This document shows positions 2,452-60,500 of a stretch of 64,000 nt of DNA, piece after piece. Source of the DNA: a virus (taxonomy: Duplodnaviria; Caudoviricetes); IMG/VR virus record IMGVR_UViG_3300033120_000570, positions 2,630 through 66,629 of that record; one strand, given 5' to 3'. Position 1 is the stretch's first letter. Each line of letters opens with the position of its first letter. The position numbers and the translations under genes were made by a program. The notes under the pieces are model-generated. The model saw only the letters and a list, made by a program, of their open reading frames with translations, did no database searches and was not told the DNA's origin.

Positions 2452-2478
2452 AATAATTTAAAAATAATTCTAAATAAA

Positions 2479-2512: not shown

Positions 2513-2634
2513 TAAATAAATAAATAATCACTCTGCGTTGCGTGTTCGAATCCTCTTAATGGCATCTTGGAAAGACTCGGAGTAAGGCAGAATAGGATGC
2601 TCAAAGCTGCATAATTATCAATTAAAAAAATAAA

Positions 2635-2898: not shown

Positions 2899-2902
2899 GA
2901 AT

Positions 2903-9916: not shown

Positions 9917-9994
9917 AATGCTATTACGTAATATAGAAAAATACAAAATAAATCAATATTTATATTGATTATGGATTTATAATTCGTATATTTG
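9913..9994 (+). promoter_or_regulatory. Class II promoter: upstream 23-nt box plus -7 element (portal)
   Basis: ATAAAATGCTATTACGTAATATA at 9913-9935; TATATTTG at 9987. Confidence 0.65.
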
Positions 9995-10031
9995 CTAGTT
10001 AGCAATATAATTATAATTAAATATATAAAAT

Positions 10032-12437: not shown

Positions 12438-12443
12438 ATTAGC

Positions 12444-12525
12444 ATAAAATGCTATTACTTAATATAAAATAATTAAAAATAAATTAACTTTTTATTGTAT
12501 TTAACATATAAAAAGATTATATTTG
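12444..12525 (+). promoter_or_regulatory. Class II promoter: upstream 23-nt box plus -7 element (scaffold/MCP operon)
   Basis: ATAAAATGCTATTACTTAATATA at 12444-12466; TATATTTG at 12518. Confidence 0.65.
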
Positions 12526-12553
12526 TACTTTATAAATTAAACGGGGAGAAATA

Positions 12554-15308: not shown

Positions 15309-16160
15309 ATGGAAGTAAAAGAAAGTAAGTTTACATTACCTGAAACAGTTGTTACGGTAAAGTATATTAAAAGAAAAAAAGGTATGGCATCTAACGTTGG
15401 TGAAGATCACGTTATATCTGGAGGGATGCTTAATGGTTCAGTGAAGAAATTTCAAGCTCCATTACTAAAAAACAATTCTATAGCCAATGTATTGACTAAG
15501 GAAGAAAAAGAATATCTAGAAAGCACTACAGGATTGGATCTTTCTGTTTATGGAGACTTTTGGTATGATCACCAAGTGTCTTTGTATAAGGATGATAATT
15601 TACTTAATTTAAGTAATCCAATAGATTATATCTCTTACAAAATACTTACGTATTTAAAAAATGATATAGCGCCAAGCTGGGCTGAAAGAAATTTAAAACA
15701 AACTTATCAATTTGTAATAACTTCTGCCGATGAAGAGTTGACAGAAAAGAAAGCTGGATTTGATAATAAAAAAGAAGCTTTTAAACTTTACGGAAAAATT
15801 GAAGAAGATAAAGATAAGTTAATTGGTATTCTAGCAATACTTACTAACAAACCAATTTCAAAAGAAACTACTTTAAAATGGATACAAACTAAAGTAGAAC
15901 AGTTTATCGATGAAAAACCAGAATCATTTGTAATTTTAATGAAAGACAAATCGTTAGATACAAAATTCTTAATTAACGATGCTGTTGAAAAAGGAGTTAT
16001 CATTAAAACAGGAAATAAGTATTCTACTAATGACGGTTTAGACTTATGTGAAAATAGTCAAATACCAACATTTGAAAATGCTATTACATATATAGATAAT
16101 CCAAAACACCAAGACGTAAGATCTTTTATAGAGGCTAAATTGCTTGGTAATAAAAAATAA
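15309..16160 (+). CDS. Conserved crAss-like post-MCP protein
   Basis: 283 aa in conserved position; LNLSNPIDYISYKIL-type motif. Confidence 0.65.
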   Translation: MEVKESKFTLPETVVTVKYIKRKKGMASNVGEDHVISGGMLNGSVKKFQAPLLKNNSIANVLTKEEKEYLESTTGLDLSVYGDFWYDHQVSLYKDDNLLNLSNPIDYISYKILTYLKNDIAPSWAERNLKQTYQFVITSADEELTEKKAGFDNKKEAFKLYGKIEEDKDKLIGILAILTNKPISKETTLKWIQTKVEQFIDEKPESFVILMKDKSLDTKFLINDAVEKGVIIKTGNKYSTNDGLDLCENSQIPTFENAITYIDNPKHQDVRSFIEAKLLGNKK

Positions 16161-42026: not shown

Positions 42027-42028
42027 AT

Positions 42029-45000
42029 ATGGCAAAAGGAAGATTTTACGGAAATCCTACTATACAAAATAGTAGTCCAGACAACAACACAAGTCCAAAT
42101 GCTGGTAAAAAGCTAAATCCATTAGAATTATATCAAAAAATATCAGACCCTAAAAGAAAACAAACCCCTATGGATTTGTGGTCTAAAGCTGCTGTTGCTA
42201 ACACATTTGAAAACACTAGTGTTGGAAATTCAAAATACGATGAAGGTCTTAATTGGAATACTGATGTCGACACTGAAGATATAGAAGGTTCTATTAATGA
42301 ACATAGATCTAACGAACAATCTGGATTAACACAGTTAGGAGCTGGATTGTTAAGGGCTGGAACTAAAGCTGCTATTGAAGTTGCAAAACTTCCAGGAGTT
42401 ATAAGTGGAATAGCTGCGGCTCCTTTTGCGGAAGAAGGAAAAGGATATGATGTAGCATTTAATAATGCATGGATAAAAGGATTAGACAAAGTAAATGAAG
42501 AAATTAATTCTGAATTTTTACCAGTATATGCTAAAAAAGCAGTCACTGAAGGAAATTTATGGGATAATATTACTTCAACGTCTTTTTGGGCTACAGATGG
42601 AGCTGATGGACTTGGATTTATGCTTGGAATGATGGCTCCTGGAGCAATAATTAGCAAATTAGGAATGGGAGCTAAATTATTAAACGGATCTAGAAAATTA
42701 GCTCAATATGCAGGAATGGCTGAAAAAACAGAATCAGCTGTTAGTGTTTTAAAAGGTCTTGGACTTACCGCAAGATCTATAGACGTAGGTACTGGCGCTG
42801 TAGTTAATACAATAACAGAGGCTGGCGCTGAAGCCAAGGGCGTTGGAGACGATATGGACGGTAAAAAACCTCAATATTTTTCAGAAAATTTTCCAAAAAA
42901 TATAGCTAAATTAAACGTTAATAACGTTCCGGAAATGATCCAAGGAAGTATGCGTCTTGTAAAAAACTTAGACGGAACTCAATCAATGGTTTCTGAAGGA
43001 TTAATCCCAAACCCTGAATTTGAAGTAATAAAAAAACAAGCTTCAGAACTTACTGAAGCTGAGTTTAAAGAGCAAAGAGCTTTAGCCATGAGGGATACTT
43101 TTAAGTCAAACTTAGCTGTTCTTATAGTTCCTAACTTGTTAATGTCAAAAGCTTTATTTGGTAAAAAAGCAGATAAATTGGTTTCTAACTTAGAAAAAAC
43201 AACATTACAAAAAGCTGCTACAAGGGGTGGTAAAATTGTTAAAAGATATGGAAAAGCTTTTGCGTCTGAAGGACTGTTAGAAGAAGGTAGTCAAACAGCT
43301 ATAGAAACCATGTTCACAGACAAAGCAATGCAAAATGAATTAAAAAGAGGTGATGGTTTTGATGGAGGTTTTGTCTCAGGAGGTCTTCAAGACTTTAATT
43401 TAGGAGAAGCTACAGAAGCTTATTCAGACATGATTAATTCTACAGAAGGAGAAAAAGCAATATTTTTAGGAGCTATAATGGGAGCTCCAATGATGTCTTA
43501 TCAGGGAAGAAAAGAAGATGTTTATAATCAAGAAAAAAGCAATAAAATACTTTCAAATATAGATAGCTCAATAAATAGTTTTAATACTATATTTAATAAT
43601 GATATATATAGAAGAGATCCAAATGATAGTTCTAAGTTTCTATATAAAAAAGATGAAAATGGAAACGACACTACAGAAAGACAAATAGACAGAGTAAAGG
43701 CTATAGAAGTTGCAAAATCTTTAAACTATAACGAACAGCAGTCTAGAAGACTTGACTGGGCAATACAAAATGGTAGAACTGAAATTATTGAAGAATTGAG
43801 AGAAAAGGCTATTTTTGATTTAATACAACCTTCTATTTATTATGGGGAAGCAGGTATAGAAGCTTTAACTGAAAAATTAAAAAATTCATCTCAATTTCAA
43901 GAAGTTTTAGATAGAGATTCTGACCCTCAAAATAAAAATAAAAGTAAAGATTTTGTAGATAATGCTTTAAAAGTAGCTTCTTATCTTCAAAAACAAAATG
44001 AAAAGTTTGTAGATTTTGCAGGAGACATAATAGATTTAAACGACGATAGAGCTAGCAAGGAAGATAAGCAAAACTACATAAATCATTTAAACACACAATA
44101 CTTACAAGCTAAATATAATCAATACAACTCAGAGCTAAAACTAAAACATGCTGTAGAAAAAAGGAATTCTATTTTAGAAGAACTTAACATTCAAATTCCT
44201 GTTAATGAAATATTAGAAAATAATAGACAAGTAAACGAGGCCAGGCAAAATAATAAAATTTTAGATGATAATTTAAATGAAATAAAATTATTAGAAGAAT
44301 CTATAACTTCAAATAAAAAAAACATAAATGAGTTGTGGTCCGGCAAAGACAAAATAGATAAATCTTTTAAAGGATATATAGATAGAGTTAAAGGAGCTGA
44401 AGAATCTCAGTCTGACGAAAAAATAGCAAAAGCAAACGAAACTGTAAGTAAAATTAAAAAAGCTAAGAATAAAAAAGAATTAAACGAAGCTTTAGAGGTT
44501 TCTAGCGCAGAGCTAAGCAAAGCTGTTCAGTCACAAACAATAGACGAGGTTAATGATAGCGTAGATCAAGATTCGTCAATAGACAATCTGCAATTAAATT
44601 TAACTAAATTAAAAAGCTTAGGATTATCTTCTAAAAAAGTAAATAAAGTTATCAATAAAATAGAGTCTATATTACAGTCTAAAATTCAAGAAATAGAAGA
44701 TTTTAAAATATTTTTAGAAGAAGCTATTGCTGATCATAATATAAAAAGTGAAAAAATATTATCAGACATTATAGATACTGAAAACAATATAAAAAAATTA
44801 ATATCTGATAGAGAGTTATTAAAAAAATCTTTAAACAATCAAGATAAATCTCCAAGAGGAAGAAACGCTAAAATTCTTAAAGAATTAATAAGAGAAACCA
44901 AAGACGAGTTAGATAGGGTAGAAAAAGAAATTGAATCATTAACTAAGGATAAAAATAATTTAACCAATGATTTAGAAGTCGCTGATAAGGAAATAGAATA

Positions 45001-47644
45001 TATATTAACTAAATATAATCAATCCAATAAAGAGCAATTTAAATCTATAAAAGACATTATTAATTACTTAGAAAATAATAAAAAGTATTTTACTTCAGAA
45101 CATAGACACGGATTAGAAAAGTTATTAATAAATCAGTTTATAACAGGTAAAGAAATAGATTTTATAAACGAATCTATATCTTCATTAGAAAACTATGTAG
45201 AAGTTCTTAATCAAACAATAAGAAATTTACTAGACAGTGAAGAAAACCATTCTGAAGATTTATACTATCTTCAAGAACAATTAAATGATTCTAAAGAAAA
45301 TTTAGTAAAATATAAAGAAACGTTAAAAGAATTGACTTCTAAAATCAATAGAATAGATGACGCTATTAATTCTAAAGAAGGTTTAAATTCTTTGAATAAA
45401 GAAATTGAGTTTTGGGAAAAGTTTCAAGAATTTAAAAAAGAAAATGTAAATGATCTTTACGATAATCCTGTAATTCAGCAAATTATAGATGAAAAAGAAA
45501 TTGAACTTACAGAAAAAGAATTAAAAGAAAAGAAAAAAGAAGAAAAAAGACAAAGAGAATTAGATAAACAAGCGTCTTTAAGTAATAAAAACGTTAAAGA
45601 AGTTATTGAGCCTGAAATCATAATTAATGAAGATGGTGAATTTGAGTCTGAATCTATTCCGGAAGAATTAGATTCTGAAGTAGTGAGTTCTTTATCTGCA
45701 AACGATATTAATGATACTAAAAGCAATATAGAAAAAGAAGAGTCCTTAATAAAGTCTGGAACTAAATTAATAAGTACAAATCAAAAAACAGGAGAGGCTT
45801 TTAGCGAAGTGTATCAGCAGTTTGTTGATTACGAAAAAGAGCCTAGAGATAAGAGTAAAGATGTTTTTACATTTGATTTAGGAGGTATAAATTTTGCAAG
45901 TGAAAAAGTCAAAAAATCTTATAATAAATTAATAAATAAAGAAAAATTAGACAAGCAAGATGTTATAAATTTAGAAGAAGGTCTTCCTATAAAAGTAATT
46001 GTAAACTACACTACAAAAGATGAAAATGGTGACGATGTAAATAGAAGCGCTTTTTCTTTTATTGAATACAAAAGTAAAGCTATTTCTGAAAATGAAAATT
46101 CTTTAAAAATATACAAAGAACAAAACGAACCTTTAAGAAAAAGTCTAATAAATTATTTAATAGATAATAAATCTTTTGAAGGAGTATCTACTAACTTACA
46201 TAGTCAATTTCCAGGTATTTTAAAAATAGATTCTTTAGAAGATGGCGTTAAAGTAAAAAAGAATAACATTTTTGATTTAGACGTGTTTAAAGACATGAGT
46301 GAAGAAGAAAAAATAGAATACTTTCAAAAAAATACAGCTTACGTTAACACTTACGGAGAACTTTTAAGTACTTTAGGTAATAAAAAGCGTATAAAAATGA
46401 TGTCTCCTGACAATAGAGGTAAAGTTTTTCTTAAAATCCCAATGAGTAACGGGTCTGACTTTTGGTTAAAACTAAACATTAATAGAATAACTGAAGATAA
46501 ATCAGAAGCTGTTTACGAAATGATTAAGGCTATAAGCGCGGTTTCTGAAACTATTGGAGCAAAAGGATTAAATGCAATAAGTATAGATCAATTTTTTAAC
46601 TCACTTGACGAATCAGATCCTATATTAAGCAATAGGCTGCAAACTGTATTAGAAGATGAAATAAAATTAGTAGAAGTTTTTGATAAAGGAAAAGTGGCAA
46701 ATAGAAATCTTGCTAGGTTATTGGATTTAATAGTTTATCATAAGTCTAAAAATAAAAAAACTGCCTTTAATTTAAATAACGATGGTTCTTTACTGTTAGG
46801 TTCTTTAGCTGTTCAATTAATGGATGGAAGTGGATTTAAGGATCAGTTATCAATAAATAAAGAAGAACTTCAATCAGATGTTGCAAAAGATGTAATAATG
46901 AGTTATTTATCAGCTAAAAGATATAATGTCCTTATAACTAAAGATAGTCCTGGTCAATTTGTATTTAACAATAAAGAATATGTAAAATATCTTCTTGGCG
47001 TTGAGAATGGAAACAAGATATTGTCTACAAATGCTGTTGTTAATGAGTCTACTTTTGGAGGGTATAGTAATATATACATAAATCAAAATTTAAACTCAAA
47101 CAAACCTACTGAAGTTAAAAAAGAAATTGTAAAAAAACCTGTAAAAAAAGCAGTTGTCAACAAAATCAACATAAAAACTTCTAACATAGAAGTAGTATCT
47201 GACGCTTCGTATAAAGCTTTTAAAGACAATGAAAGAGTTTCTGACATTATTTTAGATGAAATATCTAGAAAAATATACAACAAAGAAGCGTTGTCTGAAA
47301 GAGAAAATGAAATATATGCTGCTAACAATAAACATATAAATGAAGGTGTTCAAGAGTTAGGTACTAAGCCAGTAGATATAATTAGTTCAGAAGGTGGCGG
47401 AGTTATAAAAACAATGAAAAGATTTGCAGATGCTTTTTCTACTGATAATACTAAAAAAATAGTTGATGCTTATGAAAAAGCAAATGAAGACGCAAAGACT
47501 GAAATAATAATGAATTTATCAGATTTTCTTGAAGAATCTATAAATATGGAAGATTCAGAAGATAAAATATTTAAAGATCTTATAAAAATAGCTAAAAGTA
47601 AAAAAATATCTATTGAAAATAGTGAAAAAATATGTTCACTTTAA
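42029..47644 (+). CDS. Large cargo protein (about 1871 aa) with membrane-like N-terminus and long coiled coil
   Basis: Start revised to MAKGRF; Gly/Ala hydrophobic segments; heptad-rich middle; single Cys at C-terminus. Confidence 0.75.
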   Translation: MAKGRFYGNPTIQNSSPDNNTSPNAGKKLNPLELYQKISDPKRKQTPMDLWSKAAVANTFENTSVGNSKYDEGLNWNTDVDTEDIEGSINEHRSNEQSGLTQLGAGLLRAGTKAAIEVAKLPGVISGIAAAPFAEEGKGYDVAFNNAWIKGLDKVNEEINSEFLPVYAKKAVTEGNLWDNITSTSFWATDGADGLGFMLGMMAPGAIISKLGMGAKLLNGSRKLAQYAGMAEKTESAVSVLKGLGLTARSIDVGTGAVVNTITEAGAEAKGVGDDMDGKKPQYFSENFPKNIAKLNVNNVPEMIQGSMRLVKNLDGTQSMVSEGLIPNPEFEVIKKQASELTEAEFKEQRALAMRDTFKSNLAVLIVPNLLMSKALFGKKADKLVSNLEKTTLQKAATRGGKIVKRYGKAFASEGLLEEGSQTAIETMFTDKAMQNELKRGDGFDGGFVSGGLQDFNLGEATEAYSDMINSTEGEKAIFLGAIMGAPMMSYQGRKEDVYNQEKSNKILSNIDSSINSFNTIFNNDIYRRDPNDSSKFLYKKDENGNDTTERQIDRVKAIEVAKSLNYNEQQSRRLDWAIQNGRTEIIEELREKAIFDLIQPSIYYGEAGIEALTEKLKNSSQFQEVLDRDSDPQNKNKSKDFVDNALKVASYLQKQNEKFVDFAGDIIDLNDDRASKEDKQNYINHLNTQYLQAKYNQYNSELKLKHAVEKRNSILEELNIQIPVNEILENNRQVNEARQNNKILDDNLNEIKLLEESITSNKKNINELWSGKDKIDKSFKGYIDRVKGAEESQSDEKIAKANETVSKIKKAKNKKELNEALEVSSAELSKAVQSQTIDEVNDSVDQDSSIDNLQLNLTKLKSLGLSSKKVNKVINKIESILQSKIQEIEDFKIFLEEAIADHNIKSEKILSDIIDTENNIKKLISDRELLKKSLNNQDKSPRGRNAKILKELIRETKDELDRVEKEIESLTKDKNNLTNDLEVADKEIEYILTKYNQSNKEQFKSIKDIINYLENNKKYFTSEHRHGLEKLLINQFITGKEIDFINESISSLENYVEVLNQTIRNLLDSEENHSEDLYYLQEQLNDSKENLVKYKETLKELTSKINRIDDAINSKEGLNSLNKEIEFWEKFQEFKKENVNDLYDNPVIQQIIDEKEIELTEKELKEKKKEEKRQRELDKQASLSNKNVKEVIEPEIIINEDGEFESESIPEELDSEVVSSLSANDINDTKSNIEKEESLIKSGTKLISTNQKTGEAFSEVYQQFVDYEKEPRDKSKDVFTFDLGGINFASEKVKKSYNKLINKEKLDKQDVINLEEGLPIKVIVNYTTKDENGDDVNRSAFSFIEYKSKAISENENSLKIYKEQNEPLRKSLINYLIDNKSFEGVSTNLHSQFPGILKIDSLEDGVKVKKNNIFDLDVFKDMSEEEKIEYFQKNTAYVNTYGELLSTLGNKKRIKMMSPDNRGKVFLKIPMSNGSDFWLKLNINRITEDKSEAVYEMIKAISAVSETIGAKGLNAISIDQFFNSLDESDPILSNRLQTVLEDEIKLVEVFDKGKVANRNLARLLDLIVYHKSKNKKTAFNLNNDGSLLLGSLAVQLMDGSGFKDQLSINKEELQSDVAKDVIMSYLSAKRYNVLITKDSPGQFVFNNKEYVKYLLGVENGNKILSTNAVVNESTFGGYSNIYINQNLNSNKPTEVKKEIVKKPVKKAVVNKINIKTSNIEVVSDASYKAFKDNERVSDIILDEISRKIYNKEALSERENEIYAANNKHINEGVQELGTKPVDIISSEGGGVIKTMKRFADAFSTDNTKKIVDAYEKANEDAKTEIIMNLSDFLEESINMEDSEDKIFKDLIKIAKSKKISIENSEKICSL

Positions 47645-47678
47645 TTAGGATATATGGAATTAATTCTGTATATTTGTA
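47645..47678 (+). promoter_or_regulatory. Variant class I promoter upstream of virion RNAP
   Basis: TTAGGA-TA-TATGGA-N10-TATATTTG with the same 24-nt offset as other copies. Confidence 0.65.
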
Positions 47679-47691
47679 TAAAATATAAAAT

Positions 47692-50600
47692 ATGAGTTGT
47701 ATAAAAGTAACAAAAACAAATGGCGCTCAATCTATATTAATAGATAAGTTAGAAGAAATTTATGGAGACGAACAAAAAGCTGAAAATGCTTATTCGTTTT
47801 TTGATCAAAGTTCAGAGTCATTTATTAATGATTTTGGAGATTATGTTTCTGCTTATGGAAAAAACATTAAAGGCTTTAAAGGAAGGCTTGATGAAAATGG
47901 AGAGCCGAAATTGTTTTATAACGAAACTGCTAAAAAATACTACTACTTAAATAAGGATAGAGAAGAAATTTTCTATCCTTTAAATAGTAAAGGCTTAAGA
48001 GGGGTTTTTAATTATAAACAAATAGACAAAATAGTTTCTAGATTAGCGAATAATTATTTTAAAAAATCAAAATTAAATTTTAATAATATAGATTTTTCTG
48101 CAGGAGAAAAGTTGCCTGATTTAAAACAATATGTTAAAGAAGAAATAGAATCTAAAATAGAGGATTTAAAATCTAAAGGAATAAAAGGAAAACTATCTGC
48201 TAAATTACTTGAAAAATCTTTATCTCATGTAGATGAATATGTAGAAAAAATAGATTTGCTGTTTAAAAAAATGTCAATTGTTAGAATAGATAATGTTGAA
48301 GAAAATGATTTAAATAGCGAGCAAGATGAAATAAAAGACCCTTCATATATGAAGTCTTCTTTTGAATTAGATAGTAAAAGCGCATTATCTTCTGAAATGA
48401 AGATAAGGTTGTCTTTACTGGAAAACGATCAAGATTTAGATCCTGTATGGAATGAAAATACTTTTGTTCCATTTAACGAAGTTCATAGCACTTTACTAAA
48501 ATCTCTTTCTGATCAGGTTGTTCTTGAAGGAGAAGATATGTTTGAAACTTTTAAATCTTTAATAGAAAAAGAGTCTAATAAAAAAACATATTTAAAGGCA
48601 TTACTTTTAAATTTAAGTGACAAGCAATTTAGTAACAACAGTAAAAATCAATTTGTAAAAGCGTTTAATCTACACTCTAATAATTTTTTAGTAACTGAAT
48701 TAAGTGAAAAATCAACTGAAGACGAAAATGGAATTAAAACTCCTATTTTAAGTATAGCTGTAAAACAAATATCCGAGTCTGGATCTAAAAAAAGCATATT
48801 ACTTTCTAATTGGGGAAGTAATTTTCAAAAATATTTTTTAAATAATAGTAATAAAATAACAGAAGGAGCTTTAGAGCAATTAAACGACATAGAGTCTGAA
48901 TTAAAGTCTTTGTCTAAAAAAAGTCAAGTAAAAAATACTGCTGTTTTTTTAGAAAAAAAAGTAAATGAGTATGTTTCTGCTTTAAGAAATCTAGGTGTAG
49001 AAATGTCTGAAAAAGGTATGTTTAATTTTTTAGACAATGACTCTGATCATTTATTATCTATAGACGAACAAATGGACATTTTAAACAGCTCTATTAATAA
49101 AACGCTGGTTTCATTATCTATTGCTAAAAAGAAATACAATTCAGTAAGTAAAGAATTTAAAAATCCATTTAGTTCTGATAAAATATTTACTCAGTTATCA
49201 AAATCTGAGGCTTATTTTTTACAAGAAGGATCTGATGCAAGCATAAGAACTGGTGGAAAAAGCAAATGGCTATATTCTTATCCTTCTTACTTATCGACTA
49301 AAATACTTCAATGGAAAAAAAATCCACAACTACTAGAAGATTTATATAATCAGTCTGCATATACTAAAGGTTCTGCATTAGCTGAATATCTTTTAGCAAA
49401 GGATTTAGATCCCAATTTTGTATATGAAAATGGATATGATTCAGAAGTTAAAAGACTTTCTAAAGAAAGAATTGAAAACTTGCAATTAGGAGTTTTTAGT
49501 ATGTTTCAAAGCACTAATGGGGAATTTAAAAACACAGACGAATTAGCTTTTAGCGACTATATAATAGACAATGTAAATAAAGTATTGTCAAATAGCTTTG
49601 TAAGAACAACAACTCCTGCAGATAAAGGTACTGATTATCAATTAAAAACAGGATTCTTTATAGATTCTTTTAATTATTCTGAAAACGAAGGGAGGGTAAT
49701 TTACACTAATAAAGTAAAAAAAGTTTTTTTTAACTATTTTAATTCAGAAATCAACAGGATTAAAGAAGCTGGACTAGAAGTTGATAAATTAAAAAATTCT
49801 CCTGAAAAACTAACAATAGGATATCACTATAAAGCAGGAACTGAAATTAATTCAAAAAGTGGAAATGCTTTTTTATCTCAATACTTTCCGGATTTGTCAT
49901 TTAATTCAGAATCTGATAACTTTACTGTAAAAGAAATTAAAAAGGCTTTATACGATGATAAAGGAAATTTAAAACATACTTCAGATATAAATAACAACAA
50001 AGAATTAAAAGCTTTTGTTGAAAGATATATTGACACTGTTCTAAATGAAGGCTTTAAAAATATGTACTCTAAATTTGAAGAAGAAGGTATAATATCTTAC
50101 GACGACAATGGGAATGTTTTGCTTTCAAAAATATCTAATAAATTACTTGAAAATTATTTAGAAAACAATTCTAACAATAAGGAAGAAGCTATAAAGGCTA
50201 TAGTGTCAGATTATCATATAAATGGAATTGTCCAAAATATAGAGTATTCTAAACTATTTAGTGGAGATGTTGCTTTTTATAGTGATATGATGGACTATAA
50301 AAAAAGAGTTCCTGCCACATATACTGACGGCCTTCAATTAAGACTTCAAAAAGACGAAGAATACTTTAGAGTAGCTACTATTAATAAAGTAATGGTTAAA
50401 GCTCCTTATTACGAAGAATTAGTAAAACTTGTAGGCGCTGAAGACGCTTCTGCATATGAAAGAATTAACAGTGCAGATGCTCAAGCATGGATTACTCCTG
50501 CTAGATGGAAATTTTTAACAGAAAGACTTGGTAAGTGGTCAAAAGACCACGATTCTGTTTATTCTAAAATGATTTCTAATAATCCTGAAAAATACACATT

Positions 50601-53600
50601 AAAAGAGTTAAAGATAGCTGCACAGCCTTTAAAAGGAGTTTATTTCTATATGAATGGAAAAGTTCCTACATTTCTTAAATACTCTCAAGCTGTACTTACT
50701 AATAGCATTAGTAATGGAAACGGGCTTGGAGTTATGCTTGCGCAAATGAACAAACAGGGAGTTGACGAGTTAATTACTCTTGATGGTTTTAAGGCCGGTT
50801 CTCCTACACCTACAACGATTCACGATAGCGAAGGAAATGTTCTTGATAATATATCTTTCAATACAAAAGACTTATCAAATAGAGGATGGAAACTTCAGCA
50901 AGATTTACCTGTAAAAACTACTAAACAAACAGACGTTGGTAGTCAGATACAAAAAAATATATACAATGGATTAATTTTTAATACTAAATTAGCCGGGTTT
51001 GTTTTAGATGGCAAAGAGACTAATGGTCAAAAAATTATAGATAATTTAGTAGACGTGGTAGGAGCGTTGACCGAGCAAGGATTAAAAGATCTTGTTAAAG
51101 AATTTAAAATAGGAAAAGACGGCAAGATACAAAATGCAAAAGGTCTTTACAACTCACTTATTAGCGAACTTGAAAAAAGAGATGGTTCTAAAAACATAAT
51201 TGACGCCCTTAAAAAGGAGACGGCATTATACGGAATACCTCAATCTATAGAAAAAATAACAAATGTGTTTTCTTCAATAGTAAATGACCGTTTAATAAAA
51301 ATAAAAACAAACGGAGGTTCATTTATTCAATTGTCTAACTTTGGAATATCAAAACAAGAAGGTAATGATAAAGGAGTAGTATGGCATCCAGAAATAGAAA
51401 ATAACGGAAAAACATATGAGCCTAGAAAATACGTAGACGAAAATGGAAGAGTTAGAATTGAGCCTGCAGGAATATTAATATCTGCCTCCGTAATATCTAA
51501 ATACATTCCGAACTATAGAGATTATAGTGCTAAAGAACTTTTCGTAAGTTATAAAGAAGGTGCTCCTATAATAGATAAAAGAATATCTGAAAATATAATA
51601 GGATATAGAATTCCTAATCAAGGACTATCATCTAACGACTCTTTAAAAATAATAGGATTACTTCCTGAAGAAAACGGAGATACCGTTGTAGCTTACACTG
51701 GTATAACCACAAAAACAGGTTCTGATTTCGATATTGACAAAATGTTTTTAATGATAGCTAACTTTACTAAAAGTAAAGAAAATGATAGGTTGACATACAC
51801 TGAGTTTAATCCAGAATTAGCCAACAACAAGCAATCTAAAGAAGCTTTACAAAATAGGCTTATAGAATTGTATAAATCTGTTTTAACCCATCCAAAAGTC
51901 ATTAAAAACGTAATGAAGCCTCTTGATATAAAAACAATAGAAAGAGAGATTAAGTACTTACTTCCTTCAAAAACTTCATCGGCTATGTATCATTTTGATT
52001 CATACAACGACATTGAATTAAGGTATCAATTTCTAGGTGGTAAATTGTTAGTAGGAATGGAAGCAAATGCAATGGTTGACGTTAACAGAGTTGGAAATTT
52101 AAGTCTAAACAATTATTCTTTAGGGTGGGGATATGTAAATGACAAAGGGGATACTTTGTTAGATAAAGAATATTCTGAAAATTTATCAGAAGAAGATCTT
52201 AATTATTATTTAAATAATATTGATTTAAAAAGCGAAGAAGAAAAAAATAAAATAAAAAAAGAAATTGTAGATGTTAGACTAGCTGATTCTCTTACGCAAG
52301 TGCTTAGTGGGGCAGTAGATATAGCTAAAGATCCTTTTATTACAAGAGGAAATTGGTCTACAAGTACTACTAATATAGGAAATTTACTTTTAAGAGCTGG
52401 AGCTCACCCGTTATATACGGTTTCTTTTTTAGCGCAACCTATTATAAAAGACTTTATAAGTTACCAAAGGTCTTCCGAATCTATAACTAACAAAAGTTCT
52501 GGAGATTTAAAAGATAAATTTAGAAGAAATATTGTTATAAAGAATTTAAAAAAATTAGAAGAAAGCGTTAACTATAATTCAGGAACTTCATTGACTACAA
52601 TATATCAAAAATTTGTAAAAACCGAAGCTCATACAGTTAAAAGACTTGTTGATGAAAAAGCTAAACAATTTTTATATAAAATAATAGATAATAAATTTTT
52701 AGAAGACGAAAATGCTGATAAAATAATTTCAACAATCCTTTCAGAACACAATAAAGCCTTTAGCTCTAGTAAAATAGATGTAATGGACAAGTCTAAGTAC
52801 AACTTAGAGTATTTTAGAAATCAAATTAAGGAAACCTCCGACGGAGACTTTCAGCTAGCTATTCTTGATAAATTCTTTGAGCTGCAAAGAATAAGTAAAG
52901 GAGTTAAAGAAAATGTAGATGTTTCTAAATTAGATACAAACGGAATGGGTAAGAATATAAATTCATTATTTATTACATTTAACTTAAAACAACATATATT
53001 AAATAAAGAAAATAAAGGAGAAACTGGAGTTCTAAATGGGTTTGAGTCTAAATTTGATAAAACTCAACTTGGAAAATATCTTAGATCAATGAGAAATGTA
53101 TTAAAAGTAGTTAGATCAAATCCTATTTTATTCCCACAAGCTCAGCCAGATGTTCAAGATATGTTTAATGAAATATCTCAAGACCTATATAATACTCCTG
53201 CTTTTAATATTGAGTTAATGGATGATTTGGAAAAAGCATATTATACTTATACAATGTCTAAATTTGATCCATTTAACATGGAAAAAGAAGAAATTTCATC
53301 AATACTTACAAATCTTCCAAAAGAATTGGCTGAATTTAAAGATAAAAATAAAAATAAATTTTTAATATTAGATGAATTACAAATAAATTATGCTAAAGCT
53401 GAAAAGTCAATATTTCTAAATAACAGAAAAAAATCTCCTGATTTTGAAGAAATGTTTACTGATTCTTGGAGAGATTTAAGAGTTTCTAATCCAAAATTAG
53501 CAGAAGACTTAATAAAGTATTCTTTTTTAACTTCTGGATTTAAAATGCATTCAAAACAGTTCTACACATACATTCCAAATGAATATATGTTGCAAGAAGA

Positions 53601-56600
53601 TATAAATTCATATATAAGAAGCTTAGATAAGGAAGATAAATCTGATTTTATAGATAAATTTTATTTAAACAACTCAAGTAGTTATAAATATGTTTCTAGC
53701 GTGTTTAATGACGAAATTGATACTGAAAACCAAGGTAGTGGATTTACATTAAAAGAAGCAGGAAAATCAAGATATTATTTAAGGTTGAGTAAATCTACAA
53801 TATATAAATTAGAAGGTTATAATACTGAAAATAAAGCTGTATATACTAGAGTTGAAAAACTTGGAGCCGAAATGTCTGGAGTTAAAATTCCTGAGTACGG
53901 AGAAAAATTTACTAAAAAGAAAATTTCTGAAATAGAAGAAGAAAAAAGTGAAGGATTTAAAGTAGATGATAAATATATTTCTGAATTAAAATCAACAGTA
54001 GTTACTCAAAGAGATAAGTTTAACCCTGATTTTAAATTAGAAGAAGGTTCTAGTTTAGTTGAAGATTCTTTTGAAGAGTTGTCAGATCAGGCAGATTCTG
54101 TAAAGGAGGATTTATTTGAAGATAATTTTAATAAAGATTATGAAATAATTCAAGCTGAAGACGGAACGTTTGACGTTCTTCATGTAGAAGATGGTCTTAT
54201 AGGTGAATATGCTGAAAATATAGAAGCCGCTCAAAAAATTATAGAAAAAGATAAATTAAGTAGATTACCTTCTAAAGAAAAAGAAGTTTCTAATATAACT
54301 TCTATGTCTGAAATAACTAATCATTCTGGAGGAGCTTATGGAGCTGATACGGCATGGGATCAAGTTGGTAGAGAATTTGGGGTTATAAATCAAATGCATT
54401 ATAGAGATGCTGGAAATGAAAGATTATCTCAAACTTTAAAAAATAAAAAAGTAGAAGCTACTATTTTATCTAAAGAACAAATGGATATTGCAAGGTCTGA
54501 AGTTGAAAAACTTTTGGGTAAAAAATATCCTGACACTTTACAAGGCAATTTACAAGTTAGAAATTATTATCAAGTAGCTAATTCTGACGCTGTATTTGCA
54601 ATTGCAAAATTAGATACAGATTTTATGTTTACTGCTAGATCTGTATTTGGAGGAACTAATACAGCTGTTCAATTAGGAATAAAACTAAATAAGCCAGTTC
54701 ATGTTTTTGATTTAACTACAAAAGAATGGTATAAGTGGAATGGTTCTGAATTTTCAAAAACAGAAACTCCAACTTTAACCAAAAACTTTGCAGGAGTAGG
54801 CACAAGAGATATTGAAAACTATAGCGTAAAAGACAAAGAGGGTAATTGGGTATCTAGAAAAGAATATGTTGGTCAAAAAACTGAAGCTTTGGCTATTAAT
54901 GCTATTAGAGAAGTTTATAAAAAAACACAAGAAAGCATTTCTAAAGAAAACTTACCAATTAAAGAATTAAACAATGAAGCTGAAGTTGAAAAAACACCTG
55001 CTAAACAAGGTCAATTTGCAAAATACAATGGTCAGACTTATTTAATTACAAAAGAGAATTCTAATGGAACTTTTCAAATATATAACCCAACATTAGAAGG
55101 TGTTAATTCAAAATTATCTGTATCTAAAGATAATTTAGAAGTTTTAAAATCTTCAGCAAAAGTTATTAACTATAAAGGATCTGATTATTTAGTTACTCCA
55201 GCAAACACTATAATATCTACTATTTCAAATAAAGAAATGAAGTGGGATGCTAAAAACGGAGATAGGATTAATATTTTAAGTTTAGCCGAAAATGGAATAT
55301 TATCTCCAGAAGTAAAAGAAATACAAGTAAATACTAATAAAACATTTACTCCTGTAGTTAAAGAAAGTCCTTTTGTGCCGGCAAACAAACAGCAAAAAAA
55401 TGCCGTAATAGCTATTAAAGATTTTATAAGTAACTCTAATACTCAATACTCGGAATTCTTTATTTTAGAAGGTAAAGCCGGAACTGGCAAAACCACGTTA
55501 ATAGAAGAAGCTATTTCAGACGCAGTTAATCAGGGTAAAAAAGTAATAGTAGGCGCTTTGTCTCATAAAGCAAAAAGAGTTTTATCTGAAAAACTAAACA
55601 AAAGGTATAAAAAAGGAGAAATAGAAAGTGGAACTATTGCTGGACTACTTGGAATGAAGTTAGATCCAGAAACTCAAGAGTTTATCAAAGACTACGATAA
55701 TCCTTACGCTGACGATGCGCCAATAGAAGACGCTGATGTAATAATAATTGACGAAGCGTCAATGGTTGATGAAGGAACTATTTGGACGATAATGGACTCT
55801 AAAAAACGTAATGCTAAAGTTATATTTTTAGGAGACAGAGGGCAATTACCTCCTATAAGAAGTATCCAATCTTATATATTACTTTTAACTAAAAATAAAC
55901 CAGAAGGATGGAAAGAGGTTGTTGCTGAACTAAAAGACTTAAAAGATCAAAAAATAAATGGATCTACAAAAATGGGGCTTGTTCATAAACTTGTAAATAA
56001 ATATAAATTTGATGATTTAATAAGCGGCGCTTTTGAAGGAAAAAATAAAGCTTCTTTAACTGAAAGAGTTAGGCAAGGAGAAGACTCTCCAATACTTCCT
56101 TTTGCTGATTATTATTGGAATAACTCAGAAAATGAAGAAACTGTAGCAAGGCCGGTTCCTCAAAAAGCCATGAAAGATTCCTTAACTAATAAAGGAAATT
56201 TGATTTTTACAGAAAGTTTTGAAGATGCTTTTGATAGCGTTTCTCAAGTATTTAAAAAAGCTGTTCAAGAAAAAAACCTAGACGCAATTAAAATAGTTAC
56301 TTTTAGAAACGCTACTAGAAAAAATTACAATAAAAAAATAAGAAAAGAAGTTTTTGGAGATGAAGCTGAAAAATTTGAAAAAGGTGATTTTATTATGTTT
56401 CAAAACGCATTCCCTGTTAGCAAGGACGTTTCATTTTCTAATAGTGATGAGTTTTCAATAGAATCTGCTAAAAAAACAGAACATCTTGGGTACGAGGTTT
56501 ATAATATAGGTGTTAAGTATGTAAATAATGACAAAACTAAAGGTATAACAACTGAGTATTTTAAAGTTTTATCAGACAAGGATAAAGACAGGTTTGCAGA

Positions 56601-56979
56601 AGATGTTGATAAAAGAATGAAAGAAGCTGCTAGAGAAAAAAATCCTTCTGATAGAAGAGCAAAATTCAAGGCTGCTTATAAATTTAAAGAAACATTTGCA
56701 GATATTGATTATTCTTACGCAATAACCTCTCATAAATCACAAGGCTCAGGTTACGGAGTTTCTGTAGTTGATGTTGAAGACATTTCTAGCGTAACAATGA
56801 ACACTAGTAAAACTAAATCAAGAAGTAATTATACAGCTATTACAAGAGCTATAAATACAGCTTTAATAATAACAAAAGGAGTTGAAACTAGTAAAAAGAA
56901 TATTAGGAAAGCTTTGAATGTTGATAAAAAATCAAAGAGAGAAGGAACTGGAAATCCTAAAGATATGGGGTGCATTTAA
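47692..56979 (+). CDS. Virion-packaged RNA polymerase fused to SLOG-like domain and SF1B (Dda/RecD-like) helicase
   Basis: YRIPNQ and GSDFDIDK (51724-51738) catalytic motif; NHSGGAYGAD..FAGVGTR; GKAGTGKTT, DEASMV, GDRGQLPP, YAITSHKSQGS, YTAITRA. Confidence 0.9.
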   Translation: MSCIKVTKTNGAQSILIDKLEEIYGDEQKAENAYSFFDQSSESFINDFGDYVSAYGKNIKGFKGRLDENGEPKLFYNETAKKYYYLNKDREEIFYPLNSKGLRGVFNYKQIDKIVSRLANNYFKKSKLNFNNIDFSAGEKLPDLKQYVKEEIESKIEDLKSKGIKGKLSAKLLEKSLSHVDEYVEKIDLLFKKMSIVRIDNVEENDLNSEQDEIKDPSYMKSSFELDSKSALSSEMKIRLSLLENDQDLDPVWNENTFVPFNEVHSTLLKSLSDQVVLEGEDMFETFKSLIEKESNKKTYLKALLLNLSDKQFSNNSKNQFVKAFNLHSNNFLVTELSEKSTEDENGIKTPILSIAVKQISESGSKKSILLSNWGSNFQKYFLNNSNKITEGALEQLNDIESELKSLSKKSQVKNTAVFLEKKVNEYVSALRNLGVEMSEKGMFNFLDNDSDHLLSIDEQMDILNSSINKTLVSLSIAKKKYNSVSKEFKNPFSSDKIFTQLSKSEAYFLQEGSDASIRTGGKSKWLYSYPSYLSTKILQWKKNPQLLEDLYNQSAYTKGSALAEYLLAKDLDPNFVYENGYDSEVKRLSKERIENLQLGVFSMFQSTNGEFKNTDELAFSDYIIDNVNKVLSNSFVRTTTPADKGTDYQLKTGFFIDSFNYSENEGRVIYTNKVKKVFFNYFNSEINRIKEAGLEVDKLKNSPEKLTIGYHYKAGTEINSKSGNAFLSQYFPDLSFNSESDNFTVKEIKKALYDDKGNLKHTSDINNNKELKAFVERYIDTVLNEGFKNMYSKFEEEGIISYDDNGNVLLSKISNKLLENYLENNSNNKEEAIKAIVSDYHINGIVQNIEYSKLFSGDVAFYSDMMDYKKRVPATYTDGLQLRLQKDEEYFRVATINKVMVKAPYYEELVKLVGAEDASAYERINSADAQAWITPARWKFLTERLGKWSKDHDSVYSKMISNNPEKYTLKELKIAAQPLKGVYFYMNGKVPTFLKYSQAVLTNSISNGNGLGVMLAQMNKQGVDELITLDGFKAGSPTPTTIHDSEGNVLDNISFNTKDLSNRGWKLQQDLPVKTTKQTDVGSQIQKNIYNGLIFNTKLAGFVLDGKETNGQKIIDNLVDVVGALTEQGLKDLVKEFKIGKDGKIQNAKGLYNSLISELEKRDGSKNIIDALKKETALYGIPQSIEKITNVFSSIVNDRLIKIKTNGGSFIQLSNFGISKQEGNDKGVVWHPEIENNGKTYEPRKYVDENGRVRIEPAGILISASVISKYIPNYRDYSAKELFVSYKEGAPIIDKRISENIIGYRIPNQGLSSNDSLKIIGLLPEENGDTVVAYTGITTKTGSDFDIDKMFLMIANFTKSKENDRLTYTEFNPELANNKQSKEALQNRLIELYKSVLTHPKVIKNVMKPLDIKTIEREIKYLLPSKTSSAMYHFDSYNDIELRYQFLGGKLLVGMEANAMVDVNRVGNLSLNNYSLGWGYVNDKGDTLLDKEYSENLSEEDLNYYLNNIDLKSEEEKNKIKKEIVDVRLADSLTQVLSGAVDIAKDPFITRGNWSTSTTNIGNLLLRAGAHPLYTVSFLAQPIIKDFISYQRSSESITNKSSGDLKDKFRRNIVIKNLKKLEESVNYNSGTSLTTIYQKFVKTEAHTVKRLVDEKAKQFLYKIIDNKFLEDENADKIISTILSEHNKAFSSSKIDVMDKSKYNLEYFRNQIKETSDGDFQLAILDKFFELQRISKGVKENVDVSKLDTNGMGKNINSLFITFNLKQHILNKENKGETGVLNGFESKFDKTQLGKYLRSMRNVLKVVRSNPILFPQAQPDVQDMFNEISQDLYNTPAFNIELMDDLEKAYYTYTMSKFDPFNMEKEEISSILTNLPKELAEFKDKNKNKFLILDELQINYAKAEKSIFLNNRKKSPDFEEMFTDSWRDLRVSNPKLAEDLIKYSFLTSGFKMHSKQFYTYIPNEYMLQEDINSYIRSLDKEDKSDFIDKFYLNNSSSYKYVSSVFNDEIDTENQGSGFTLKEAGKSRYYLRLSKSTIYKLEGYNTENKAVYTRVEKLGAEMSGVKIPEYGEKFTKKKISEIEEEKSEGFKVDDKYISELKSTVVTQRDKFNPDFKLEEGSSLVEDSFEELSDQADSVKEDLFEDNFNKDYEIIQAEDGTFDVLHVEDGLIGEYAENIEAAQKIIEKDKLSRLPSKEKEVSNITSMSEITNHSGGAYGADTAWDQVGREFGVINQMHYRDAGNERLSQTLKNKKVEATILSKEQMDIARSEVEKLLGKKYPDTLQGNLQVRNYYQVANSDAVFAIAKLDTDFMFTARSVFGGTNTAVQLGIKLNKPVHVFDLTTKEWYKWNGSEFSKTETPTLTKNFAGVGTRDIENYSVKDKEGNWVSRKEYVGQKTEALAINAIREVYKKTQESISKENLPIKELNNEAEVEKTPAKQGQFAKYNGQTYLITKENSNGTFQIYNPTLEGVNSKLSVSKDNLEVLKSSAKVINYKGSDYLVTPANTIISTISNKEMKWDAKNGDRINILSLAENGILSPEVKEIQVNTNKTFTPVVKESPFVPANKQQKNAVIAIKDFISNSNTQYSEFFILEGKAGTGKTTLIEEAISDAVNQGKKVIVGALSHKAKRVLSEKLNKRYKKGEIESGTIAGLLGMKLDPETQEFIKDYDNPYADDAPIEDADVIIIDEASMVDEGTIWTIMDSKKRNAKVIFLGDRGQLPPIRSIQSYILLLTKNKPEGWKEVVAELKDLKDQKINGSTKMGLVHKLVNKYKFDDLISGAFEGKNKASLTERVRQGEDSPILPFADYYWNNSENEETVARPVPQKAMKDSLTNKGNLIFTESFEDAFDSVSQVFKKAVQEKNLDAIKIVTFRNATRKNYNKKIRKEVFGDEAEKFEKGDFIMFQNAFPVSKDVSFSNSDEFSIESAKKTEHLGYEVYNIGVKYVNNDKTKGITTEYFKVLSDKDKDRFAEDVDKRMKEAAREKNPSDRRAKFKAAYKFKETFADIDYSYAITSHKSQGSGYGVSVVDVEDISSVTMNTSKTKSRSNYTAITRAINTALIITKGVETSKKNIRKALNVDKKSKREGTGNPKDMGCI

Positions 56980-56995
56980 TAATAAAATATAAAAT

Positions 56996-57478
56996 ATGAA
57001 ATTTATAAACGAAGAAGTAATAAAATTACTTAATTACAGGATTCAACAAGAACAATACAGTTCTAAAGTTTACGAGCAAATGAGTGCATGGTTACAAAAT
57101 GCATCATTTTTAAACTCTTCAAAAATTTGGGCTAAGTTTGCTTCTGAAGAATTAACACATGCCGAGTTGGCTAAAGACTATTTATTGTCTTTTAACATAA
57201 TGCCGGAACTAATGGTTATTGAAGAAGCTCCTAATGATTTCAAAGACATTAAAGAAATTATTCAAGCTACTTTTGATCACGAAGTAATGGTTACAGAACA
57301 ATGCTTAGCTTTAACGAGTAAAGCTATGGATTTAAAAGATTGGACGTTATTTGCTCTTGGTCAAAAATACAATGAAATACAAAGAGTTGAGATGGATGAA
57401 GTTTACAATTTGGTAGATATATCTAATTTAAGCAACGATAATTTAATTTTAGATAAATATATCGGAGATAATTTTTAA
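56996..57478 (+). CDS. ftnA: Non-haem ferritin (FtnA-like)
   Basis: LNYRIQQEQYSS..Y, EELTH, DHE, IQRVE ferroxidase-centre spacing; 160 aa. Confidence 0.8.
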   Translation: MKFINEEVIKLLNYRIQQEQYSSKVYEQMSAWLQNASFLNSSKIWAKFASEELTHAELAKDYLLSFNIMPELMVIEEAPNDFKDIKEIIQATFDHEVMVTEQCLALTSKAMDLKDWTLFALGQKYNEIQRVEMDEVYNLVDISNLSNDNLILDKYIGDNF

Positions 57479-57485
57479 TTTAAAC

Positions 57486-57507
57486 AAAGGGGTGTAAAAA
57501 CCCCTTT
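57486..57507 (+). terminator. Hairpin after ferritin (possible weak terminator or processing site)
   Basis: AAAGGGGT-GTAAAA-ACCCCTTT; only 3 T after stem. Confidence 0.45.
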
Positions 57508-57520
57508 AAACACATAATAT

Positions 57521-60500
57521 ATGAGTTGTAGCTTTCAATATGTTGAAGATGCTTTAAGAGCATCTAGTCCTGAAGAGGCGGACAGGTTAAATGAAAAAGG
57601 TATAGAAACTTGGAAAGAACTTAAAAATTCAAATTTATTTTCTATAAATAAGAATGAAGAATATGGTTTTAGTCGAGAAGGAACAAAACAAAGAGCAAGA
57701 CAAGAATCTTTTATTTCTGAGCTAAATAAAGACATAGAGTTTGTATTTAATGAAGACGATGAAGTTTATGTTGATTTACTTCAATTGACAGATAAAATTC
57801 TTGACAACGTTCCAAAAGAAAAAGAAGTTATTGAGTCTGAAAACAAATACAATTTATCAGATCTAATTGACGATAATAATTCATTACCGTTGTTTAGTGA
57901 AGAATCAGTTTATTACGATTTAAATAACGAAACTCCTACTTTTGTTTTATTTGGAGAAAACGAGCAATATAATATTCATAGCGCAAGCGATGTTTTAAAT
58001 AATATATTAGACAGTTTTAGCGATAGATTTTCTAGTGACGCTAAAATGCTTTTAAATAGAGCTGAAATTTTATTAAAAAAGTCTAAGGCTACTGTTAAGA
58101 TAATTAGCGCAGATAATTTTAATGGAAAAAATAACTTAATGAGATATGACGCTCTTACTAATGAGATATTGGTTAGAGACGATTCTAATGAATACTCTGT
58201 AGAAGATATGGTTTCTTCTTTTTTGCACGAAGCAACGCATTCTGTAACCGCAAGAGCGTATATAGACCCAATTACGTTTGAAGAAAAAGATTTTAAAAAA
58301 TTTATAGACAAAGCTTTTTCTGAATTTAAAAAATACGCTACAGATAAAGACAGGGAAAGATACGGCTTTACTAACGAGTTAGAGTTTATATCAGAGTTAT
58401 TTACTAATCCTAATTTTGAAAGAGTTTTAAGAAGAATAGAGTTTACTGTTAACGAGGGTAAAAACAAAAACAAAGCTATGTCTAGTTTTTTTTCCGAATT
58501 AAATGATTTTATTAGAAGGCTTTTTGGAGCAAAAAAAACAGAAGTTGTAGACGCTTTAATAGAATCTATAACAAGAATAGCTTCTTCCGAACAGTCAGAG
58601 TATAGTGTTGACAAAAGATTCTTTTTAGACAAAATAAAAGAAGACGAAGAAAATGTTGATAATGAGTTAAAATTTATAAAACCAACTTTAGTTAGTTTTG
58701 AAGATAGACTGATGAATTTAATAGGTAAGGCAAAAGATAATATATCGAATGTAAGATCCATAACGATTAAATCAAAAGCTACTACAAATAAAAAAGACCA
58801 TAGAGTTCATCTAGAAAATTTAAATAAATTAATAGAAGAAATGGATTCTCTTTCTGAACTTGAAAAATTAAAAGTTATTGTTCAATATACAAAAACAATG
58901 GCAAAAACCGTATTTCAAGTAAGAAAAGGAATGGATAAAATAAATAAAGAAGCTGGCACAAATAAAGATATTGGGAATTACAAATTAGTAGAAAAGTACG
59001 AAAGCTATTTAGCATCCTATGATTTAATAGTTGACATAAGGGACACTGTAGCGGCTTCTTCTAGAGTAAAACTGTCTGAAGAAGATATTTTGCATATTGA
59101 AGAAATTAAAAAAATATTACAAGAAATAACAAGTGTTCACGATAATTTAATAGCTGAATTTAAAGTATTTAAAAGGGAGGAGGCTATTAAGATAGTATCG
59201 TCTCCAGAATACAACACTCAAGTAGAAACTGATCATAAAAAAAGACTATATAAAGAACATTATGATTTAAAAATAAAAGGAGAATCTAAAGAAGAGTATG
59301 CTAATAGAATGCTTAACACAAGAGACAAAGATTTATACAAGAATGATTTAGTTTCGACTGCAGAAAAAATAGTTAGCGATCCTTCTTTTGATATAAGTAG
59401 TTTTAATAAAAGTTGGGGAGATGCATTAAATACCAATAGCAAACTGGCTCAAATAGTTGTAAATATATTTAGTTCAGTAAGAGACAGAATACTTTCAAAA
59501 TACAAATCTGTTGAAATGAATTTAAGTAATTTATTTGACGATGTAATTAAAGAAAAAGGAAATAAGCCTCCTTCAAAGATGTATCAAAATATTTATGAAA
59601 AAGACAGTAAAGGGAACTTTTTTTTTAAAGGAAGATATAAAATAGAATTTAGAGATAAGTATTTAGACGAATACATGCCTCTAAAAGAAGCTGCTGAAGA
59701 AATTTTAAATAAATTTATCGAAAAAGGTCTTACCAGAAAAGAAGCTAGGACTGAAAAAGATTATAAAGATGCAAATGCTTTAGCTTTAGCTTGGATGGCA
59801 AAACACACAAGATCTGAACGAGCTGATATTAGCGGAAGAACTTGGCTTCCTAATAAAGAATATTTAAACGATGAAGTTACCGGGATTGATGCTCAGGTTT
59901 TAAAAGAGGCTATAGCTATGGCTAAATTTTCCCATAAATCTACATACGGAAAACAATCTTTAATAAAAAAAACAGGTCAAGTTGAATTTTATAGTTTTCC
60001 TTCTATAACAAAATCCGCATTTGAAAGAACTATGGAAGGAGACTTTAAAGGAAGTGTTCAAGATATAAAAGATAATTTTACAAAAATTAGACCTGATGAC
60101 GTTGGTTATGGAGAAGCTATTGATAAAAAAGGAGAAACATTAAAAAGTGTCAAAATACATTTTAGAGGCAAACTTGACGAAAGTCAGCAATCTTTAGATG
60201 TTTTGAGCCTTATTAGAAGCGAATATCTAAATGCTATTAGTTACAGAGAAAAGAAGGACTCTGAAAGCTCTTTATTATTAATGGCAGATATATCTAGAAA
60301 TAAAAATTATTTTCAAAAATCAAGCAAAACAGGCCTTCCTCTTGTAAATTTATTTAATAAAAACGTTCCTGCTGTAGAAATTCCAGGCGAATTTTCAAAT
60401 GAATATGAAAGAATTAAAGGGATGTTGGAAAGGAATCTTTATGACACAATGAGTGTTCATGGAGGAACTATATTAGGGGCAGACGTTAATAAGTTAACTA

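Follow-up and report, generated by a model that had tools for sequence, protein, structure and literature searches.

The window analysed here, a 64,000-nt stretch of viral DNA (record IMGVR_UViG_3300033120_000570, positions 2,630 to 66,629; Duplodnaviria; Caudoviricetes), encodes five virion cargo proteins that together hold only four cysteines (Cys). All four lie at the facing ends of three giant proteins: protein A, the virion RNA polymerase (RNAP) and a zincin-motif protein. Comparison with related phages shows that such facing terminal Cys follow the breaks in this chain of proteins, being present where neighbouring proteins are separate and missing where they are fused. This pairing rule is very well supported by the sequences compared. 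We propose that A, RNAP and the zincin protein are probably joined head to tail by covalent disulfides in the virion. The genes and codons concerned are listed below, with lengths in amino acids (aa) and Cys positions counted from the N-terminus (+) or the C-terminus (-).

37381..40176, plus strand: cargo protein 1, 931 aa, 0 Cys; PF25725 crAss_CARG1, E = 2.5e-20
40176..42026, plus strand: cargo protein 2-like, 616 aa, 0 Cys; named by position and by BLAST to equivalent open reading frames (ORFs)
42002..47644, plus strand: protein A, a gp67/gp47-type virion protein with a single Cys at -2; identified with a hidden Markov model (HMM) of the A core
47633..47635, plus strand: Cys1878 codon (TGT) of protein A, ..EKICSL*, from the translation
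47692..56979, plus strand: virion RNAP, 3095 aa, two Cys (+3 and -1); PDB 6VR4, DFDID
47698..47700, plus strand: Cys3 codon (TGT) of RNAP, MSCIK, from the translation
56971..56973, plus strand: Cys3094 codon (TGC) of RNAP, ..DMGCI*, from the translation
56996..57478, plus strand: inserted ferritin-like gene, 160 aa, one internal Cys (residue 103); PF00210, E = 2.8e-15
57521..61837, plus strand: zincin-motif protein, gp65/gp49 type, 1438 aa, single Cys at +3; HEATH, tblastn
57527..57529, plus strand: Cys3 codon (TGT) of the zincin protein, MSCSF, from the translation

The gene identities of this cargo block mark the window as belonging to a crAss-like phage; of the cultured phages in the collection, Cellulophaga phage phi14:2 is the nearest to it. 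The RNAP matches the phi14:2 gp66 structure (6VR4_A, E = 5.4e-217, query residues 12-1370) and carries the catalytic DFDxD motif as DFDID at residue 1345. The zincin protein has an HExxH motif (HEATH at residue 236) and matches phi14:2 g065 by tblastn (E = 6e-80, 81% of the query covered), and the A-core HMM also matches phi14:2 g067. Protein A is 1880 aa long when read from its first ATG (42002) and 1871 aa from the ATG at 42029, as counted in an earlier note on this DNA. Cargo protein 1 is a crAss_CARG1 member at 73.3 bits (cutoff 27), and the ferritin-like gene scores above the PF00210 gathering threshold (56.9 bits, cutoff 24.5). The 616-aa ORF gave no Pfam or PHROG match. It lies outside the Cys-linked chain, as does the inserted ferritin-like gene. 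Packaging of the RNAP in the virion and its delivery to the host have been reported only for the phi14:2 and crAss001 homologues.

The five cargo ORFs total 7,960 aa. Of their four Cys, one belongs to protein A (-2), two to RNAP (+3 and -1) and one to the zincin protein (+3); the N-terminus of A and the C-terminus of the zincin protein have none. Cys makes up 0.05% of the cargo, against 0.92% of the other plus-strand ORFs of the window (105 in 11,419 aa), a share at which about 73 Cys would be expected in the cargo. The chance of four or fewer Cys is about 2e-26, and that of all four lying at most three residues from the four facing termini is about 5e-12. In the other window ORFs a Cys falls within the first ten residues in 3/38 cases and within the last ten in 3/38. 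The 1339-aa ORF at 32541-36560, which directly precedes the cargo block, has 9 Cys, so that depletion sets in precisely with the first cargo gene; the crAss001 protein encoded just before the cargo block of that phage, gp44 (annotated as virion structural), has 10. The protein labels of the earlier note (RNAP, zincin and ferritin), its count of four Cys with no extra internal one, and its placement of them at the C-terminal end of A, both ends of RNAP and the N-terminal end of the zincin protein (codons at 47633, 47698, 56971 and 57527) were all borne out by homology searches and translation. In an AlphaFold2 model the N-terminal stretch of RNAP that contains Cys3 is non-helical, with the first helix at residue 15; such a predicted position would suit a tether.

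To follow the terminal Cys across relatives we collected 80 related viral loci together with phi14:2 and crAss001. Iterated HMMs served to identify the cores of A, RNAP and zincin, and dereplication by RNAP-core identity (90%) reduced the set to 50 lineages. A junction end was scored as carrying Cys when one lay within 10 residues of it. Cys was present on both facing ends of all 43 RNAP-zincin split junctions and of 20 of the 21 A-RNAP split junctions. The outer ends of the chain carried it in only 1/33 N-termini and 0/41 C-termini. The position of these Cys is narrow: 56 of 69 C-terminal junction ends have it 0-2 residues before the end, and 62 of 70 N-terminal ones have it at residues 3-5. 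Elsewhere in the related chain proteins Cys is almost absent, with an internal share of 0.03% over 275,693 residues.

Both cultured relatives conform. In phi14:2, gp67 ends in C, gp66 reads MAC..ECK and gp65 starts with MSC; in crAss001, gp47 ends in ..RCNS, gp50 has Cys5 and a Cys at -8, and gp49 has Cys5. Six further TAG-recoded lineages also conform; their genes are fragmented under translation table 11 and become giant ORFs when TAG is read as Gln. The relatives with TAG as Gln (L039, L040, L046, L053, L054, L056-L062, L065, L066, L068-L073 and L076) have giant ORFs of 4,200-5,254 aa plus 1,555-1,792 aa. They hold 3-12 internal Cys, more than marine-type lineages, and keep the junction pair.

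Larger protein sets gave the same picture. A set of 125 full-length zincin-protein representatives with mutual identity below 50% includes 118 that carry a Cys within ten residues of the N-terminus, at position 3 in 86 of these. Not one carries it within ten residues of the C-terminus, and 113 contain a single Cys in all. In 115 RNAPs whose C-terminal add-ons vary, the C-terminal Cys is always present, both terminal Cys occur in 113, and the total is just two Cys in 99. When the last 250 aa of protein A are aligned, no column but that of Cys reaches 90% conservation; over the N-terminal 400 aa of the zincin protein C3 alone is invariant, and C3 of RNAP is nearly invariant in the N-terminal alignment. 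The terminal Cys persists at 22-25% identity, where its surroundings have changed.

At the N-terminal junction ends the Cys is followed by Pro in 21/70 cases (C-P-N-K/F or C-P-L-P). Such C-P starts are found at zincin-type N-termini (L006, L016, L023, L028-L030, L034, L035, L037, L040, L042, L045, L046, L054, L056, L064, L065, L067 and L074) and also at some RNAP N-termini (L074, L078). This recurrence suggests a recognisable short motif, more than a Cys alone.

The relatives in which the same modules are fused offer a separate view of the rule. Thirteen fusions of A with RNAP keep only the C-terminal Cys, except that the Cys-rich L027 among them also has one near the N-terminus. Five full fusions of 4,627-5,346 aa among the 50 lineages have no Cys at all, and two more Cys-free full fusions were found in the search for representatives (seven in all). 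The RNAP-zincin fusions P0123 and P0094 have a single Cys each, at the N-terminus, and the protein A encoded upstream on the P0123 contig has its sole Cys at -1. The 100-270 residues flanking each junction do not align between fused and split forms, so the Cys could not be mapped onto the fused chain.

The break points themselves are not fixed. The RNAP core starts at about 850-1020, 1381, 1720-1980 or 2537 aa depending on the lineage, and each break has its own pair; in L011 the chain has an extra link of 1167 aa with a Cys at both ends. In relatives whose RNAP has no helicase, the terminal Cys lies 80-270 aa past the point that aligns to window RNAP residue ~2060. The window RNAP has no Cys near that residue and carries it at the new end, residue 3094, as do the other added C-terminal modules (AlkB and others). 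Judged from these alignments, the Cys tracks chain ends, not domains. Gene arrangement is equally variable: four lineages (crAss001, L048, L063, L075) encode protein A on the opposite strand, the spacing between genes runs from -10 to 541 nt, and further genes may be inserted, yet the rule is kept in all these cases and therefore acts at the protein level. For the same reasons a DNA-level cause, such as translational coupling or a shared start/stop cassette, was rejected. On a tree of the RNAP core, the split or fused state changed at least 3 times at the RNAP-zincin junction and at least 4-5 times at the A-RNAP junction, and all seven independent contrasts (4 + 3) agree with the prediction.

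A solved precedent exists in an unrelated phage. Cryo-electron microscopy of cyanophage A4 showed a disulfide between gp27 Cys1715 and gp26 Cys5 in the packed pre-ejectosome (PMC12002296). In Anabaena phage A-4L we find that gp27 (1717 aa) has its sole Cys at -2, and gp26 (1114 aa) its sole Cys at residue 5. As in the crAss chain, these are consecutive giant ejected proteins whose only Cys are terminal and face each other; unlike it, they form one link rather than a chain and involve no RNA polymerase, and the A4 study describes a single stabilising bond of a single phage rather than an order-wide rule of fission and fusion. HMM and BLAST comparisons gave no match between gp27 or gp26 and the crAss A, RNAP or zincin proteins, so that the likeness is one of functional analogy, not family membership, and looks like convergence. 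Elsewhere in A-4L, gp29 has no Cys and gp28 has two close ones near its C-terminus (residues 1036 and 1039).

Depletion of Cys as such is known from other ejected proteins. In the ejection proteins of Schitoviridae (N4 gp50/51/52, DEV gp71/72/73), Cys suppression has been attributed to passage through the envelope (PMC11445570), and we count 0 Cys in the 4,294 aa of coliphage N4 gp50, gp51 and gp52. The window cargo shows suppression of this type, its Cys content being far below that of the other proteins of the phage, and in both groups a giant virion RNAP and co-ejected proteins are almost Cys-free. The Schitoviridae proteins differ in having no terminal Cys, hence no covalent chain, and their RNAP is of the unrelated T7-like family.

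Closer to the window, phi14:2 gp67-gp66-gp65 and crAss001 gp47-gp50-gp49 have been reported as virion components (PMC10172136; bioRxiv 10.1101/2020.03.07.982082). They are homologous to the window proteins and have the same terminal-Cys pattern; the window differs in the extra DprA-like and helicase module on its RNAP and in the ferritin-like gene before the zincin gene. A fused, single-ORF crAss RNAP 'polyprotein' has also been noted, and its cleavage into parts proposed (Drobysheva et al. preprint, after Yutin et al.). In these single-ORF forms module content and order are as in the window but on a single chain, which has peptide bonds at the sites of the window's Cys pairs and 0 Cys; the Cys rule suggests that the connected, not the cleaved, state of the cargo is the functional one.

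In the model we propose, one disulfide would join A Cys1878 with RNAP Cys3 and a second RNAP Cys3094 with zincin-protein Cys3, each replacing the peptide bond that joins the same modules in fused relatives. The product would be one quasi-linear thread of ~6,400 aa. Since the Cys lie within a few residues of the chain ends, the joint would be almost as thin as a single chain. Any other Cys would be selected against, a free thiol being a hazard both in an oxidising particle and for the passage of an unfolded protein through the envelope. Packing would likely be 1:1:1 for the three proteins and their exit would follow a set order; reduction would likely cut the links on arrival in the cytoplasm. 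That the cargo leaves as an ordered thread released by reduction is plausible, and we put it forward tentatively. A broader formulation is offered with the same reserve: where the gene for a giant ejected polyprotein was split, in Crassvirales and by convergence in one or more unrelated podophages, the split may have been offset by a reducible disulfide at the break, a redox-cleavable stand-in for peptide bond and protease, giving an ordered thread with the RNAP in mid-chain.

The choice of partners follows from the fused forms. Fusions of A with RNAP retain only the RNAP C-terminal and the zincin N-terminal Cys, and these two must therefore be partners; by parsimony, the C-terminal Cys of A then pairs with the N-terminal Cys of RNAP. 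The sequence patterns make pairing within a homodimer or within one molecule look disfavoured. If it is free thiols that are purged from these proteins, those retained are probably not free. Inter-subunit disulfides are present in the tail and portal vertex of crAss001 virions (PMC10172136). Complex prediction with the last 250 aa of A and the first 400 aa of RNAP (10-row alignments) gave a score of 0.23 (mark 0.32), the partner fold itself being uncertain, and speaks neither for nor against the link. Of the expectations that the earlier note had attached to its head-to-tail chain, the comparative ones came true: the terminal pairing is conserved in homologues across the order (the 43/43 and 20/21 split junctions above), and relatives with fused genes are without Cys exactly at the fused junctions, be it A with RNAP, RNAP with zincin, or the full fusions. 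Its option of a ligated chain is disfavoured, the Cys positions being unsuited to that chemistry (see below).

Several points weigh against a disulfide-linked chain. Phage particles assemble in the reducing cytoplasm, so that oxidation must occur inside the particle or after lysis; gut crassviruses, moreover, live without oxygen. The contrasts on the tree are few (4 and 3), and neither set reaches p < 0.05 alone. The purge of Cys is not absolute, as gut and TAG-recoded lineages tolerate 3-13 internal ones. In L005, the sole exception among the A-RNAP junctions, the Cys of protein A lies 31 aa from the end, and L067 shows a split of the zincin protein, into parts of 928 and 1278 aa (5811-8597; 8705-12541), that comes without any Cys. 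Among the zincin representatives, P0065 is free of Cys, even with upstream start codons considered, and may be a real exception; P0130 and P0149 also have no N-terminal Cys and may be exceptions or artefacts. The cargo was not resolved in the crAss001 maps (PMC10172136), and in the literature we found no experiment showing the bond in any crassvirus and no non-reducing analysis of these proteins.

Other apparent exceptions were rejected on inspection. At least four of the seven among the zincin representatives are artefacts: P0144 is an N-truncated RNAP-zincin fragment, P0036 has a miscalled start codon (an upstream ATG gives MDCPIRQ..), P0030 runs off the contig edge and P0109 follows a scaffold gap. 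L050 is a fused gene with two frameshifts relative to L036 (6985-7845), and in L079 the RNAP is broken inside the helicase domain (15433-15603), the downstream fragment ending in Cys. The zincin protein is whole in L074, the sister of L067. The Cys-less breaks in L067, L079 and L050 are probably sequencing or assembly errors or recent pseudo-splits, and the Cys rule may help to separate real gene fissions from such artefacts.

Four other explanations of the facing Cys were weighed. The best placed of them, still unlikely, is that the virion thiols are free and join only after ejection, through the periplasmic thiol oxidases of the host, to build a complex across the envelope. It predicts the same sequence rule, and contact with the disulfide-forming enzymes of the periplasm has been given as the reason why ejected proteins avoid Cys (PMC11445570). 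The equivalent bond of A4, however, is already present in the packed virion; free terminal thiols would meet the same hazard that purged the internal ones; and the RNAP must enter the cytoplasm, where the bond would be reduced anyway.

Slightly less probable still is that the facing Cys bridge a metal ion (Zn or Fe), either with two copies per partner, as in the Rad50 zinc hook, or together with a nearby His or Asp. A pairwise need for thiols at facing ends would yield the same covariation, some zincin N-termini read H-C-x-x-H (L001, L009), and a ferritin-like or DUF5856 gene stands at this junction in the clade of the window. One Cys per terminus would nevertheless provide two ligands only; no conserved His, Asp or second Cys is adjacent, the Cys being the sole conserved column; and in the one solved case with this signature, A4, the Cys form a disulfide.

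We consider it very improbable that the Cys have no linking role at all and are a mutational scar of gene splitting or leftovers tolerated at harmless ends. A shared cassette could be suggested by the endings C-K-stop and starts M-A-C-K that are common on the two sides, and by the identical 9 nt ATGAGTTGT at both MSC starts of the window (47692-47700; 57521-57529); the identity of ATGAGTTGT is probably due to codon bias in a genome of ~29% GC. Against a scar or leftovers, Cys is nearly absent from outer termini (1/33, 0/41, 0/125), persists through the divergence noted above, and turns up again at the ends created by domain gain or by shifted breaks; moreover, the fused forms are without a junction Cys and thus show no duplicated target. 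Finally, ligation into a true polyprotein, by split-intein trans-splicing or native chemical ligation, would need a junction Cys and accords with the existence of fused homologues, but it can practically be dismissed: intein-sized segments are absent (intein chemistry needs Cys1 of an intein of ~100+ aa and a +1 Cys), the C-terminal Cys stand 0-2 aa before the end of the chain and the N-terminal ones at positions 3-5, and ligation would leave a junction Cys where fused relatives have none.

The disulfide-linked chain remains our preferred reading. The region around the RNAP-zincin junction showed further features. The C-terminus of the window RNAP (54300-56979, residues about 2200-3075) consists of a DprA-like region (phrog_768) and a Dda/RecD-like superfamily 1 (SF1) helicase (phrog_325, PF13604), and the helicase module is common to the window, L001 and a separate clade (L029, L033/34, L045, L049, L064, L079, L080). 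In other relatives the same end carries AlkB (PF13532), PF25176, PF08719, PF12694 or an acetyltransferase domain, and it therefore looks like a hot spot of domain gain. The junction itself repeatedly hosts a small gene, ferritin-like in the window and a 120-aa DUF5856 gene in L001 (19131-19493) and L009 (14746-15108). The two DUF5856 genes are 64% identical to each other; the window ferritin-like protein showed no similarity to the L001 protein by pairwise BLAST, the only comparison made. A GC-rich hairpin (57485-57508) lies 3' of the ferritin-like gene.

We found no description of terminal Cys in crassvirus cargo in the full-text literature, with subscription-only papers outside the scope of the search, and these Cys are not mentioned in the phi14:2 and crAss001 papers (PMC10172136; bioRxiv 10.1101/2020.03.07.982082). 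Cys suppression in ejected proteins and the single head-to-tail disulfide of A4 had been described before; the addition made here is a Cys rule with several links that holds across the order and tracks gene fission and fusion. The rule is of use in annotation, as it flags wrong starts, truncations and frameshifts in giant ORFs (P0036, P0030, P0109, L050).

Crassviruses are among the most abundant phages of the human gut, and how about 1 megadalton of protein is packed and then ejected through a narrow tail is the open question that these results address. The crAss001 work went no further than to name packing and mutual interactions of the proteins as probable determinants of ejection order (PMC10172136). 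A conserved covalent chain, if true, would answer the question of order for three of the five cargo proteins. The fused 'polyprotein' forms would then have to be reread, as their connected state may be the functional one. That an unrelated cyanophage has the identical signature, with a bond visible by cryo-electron microscopy, suggests a general design principle for ejected phage proteins.

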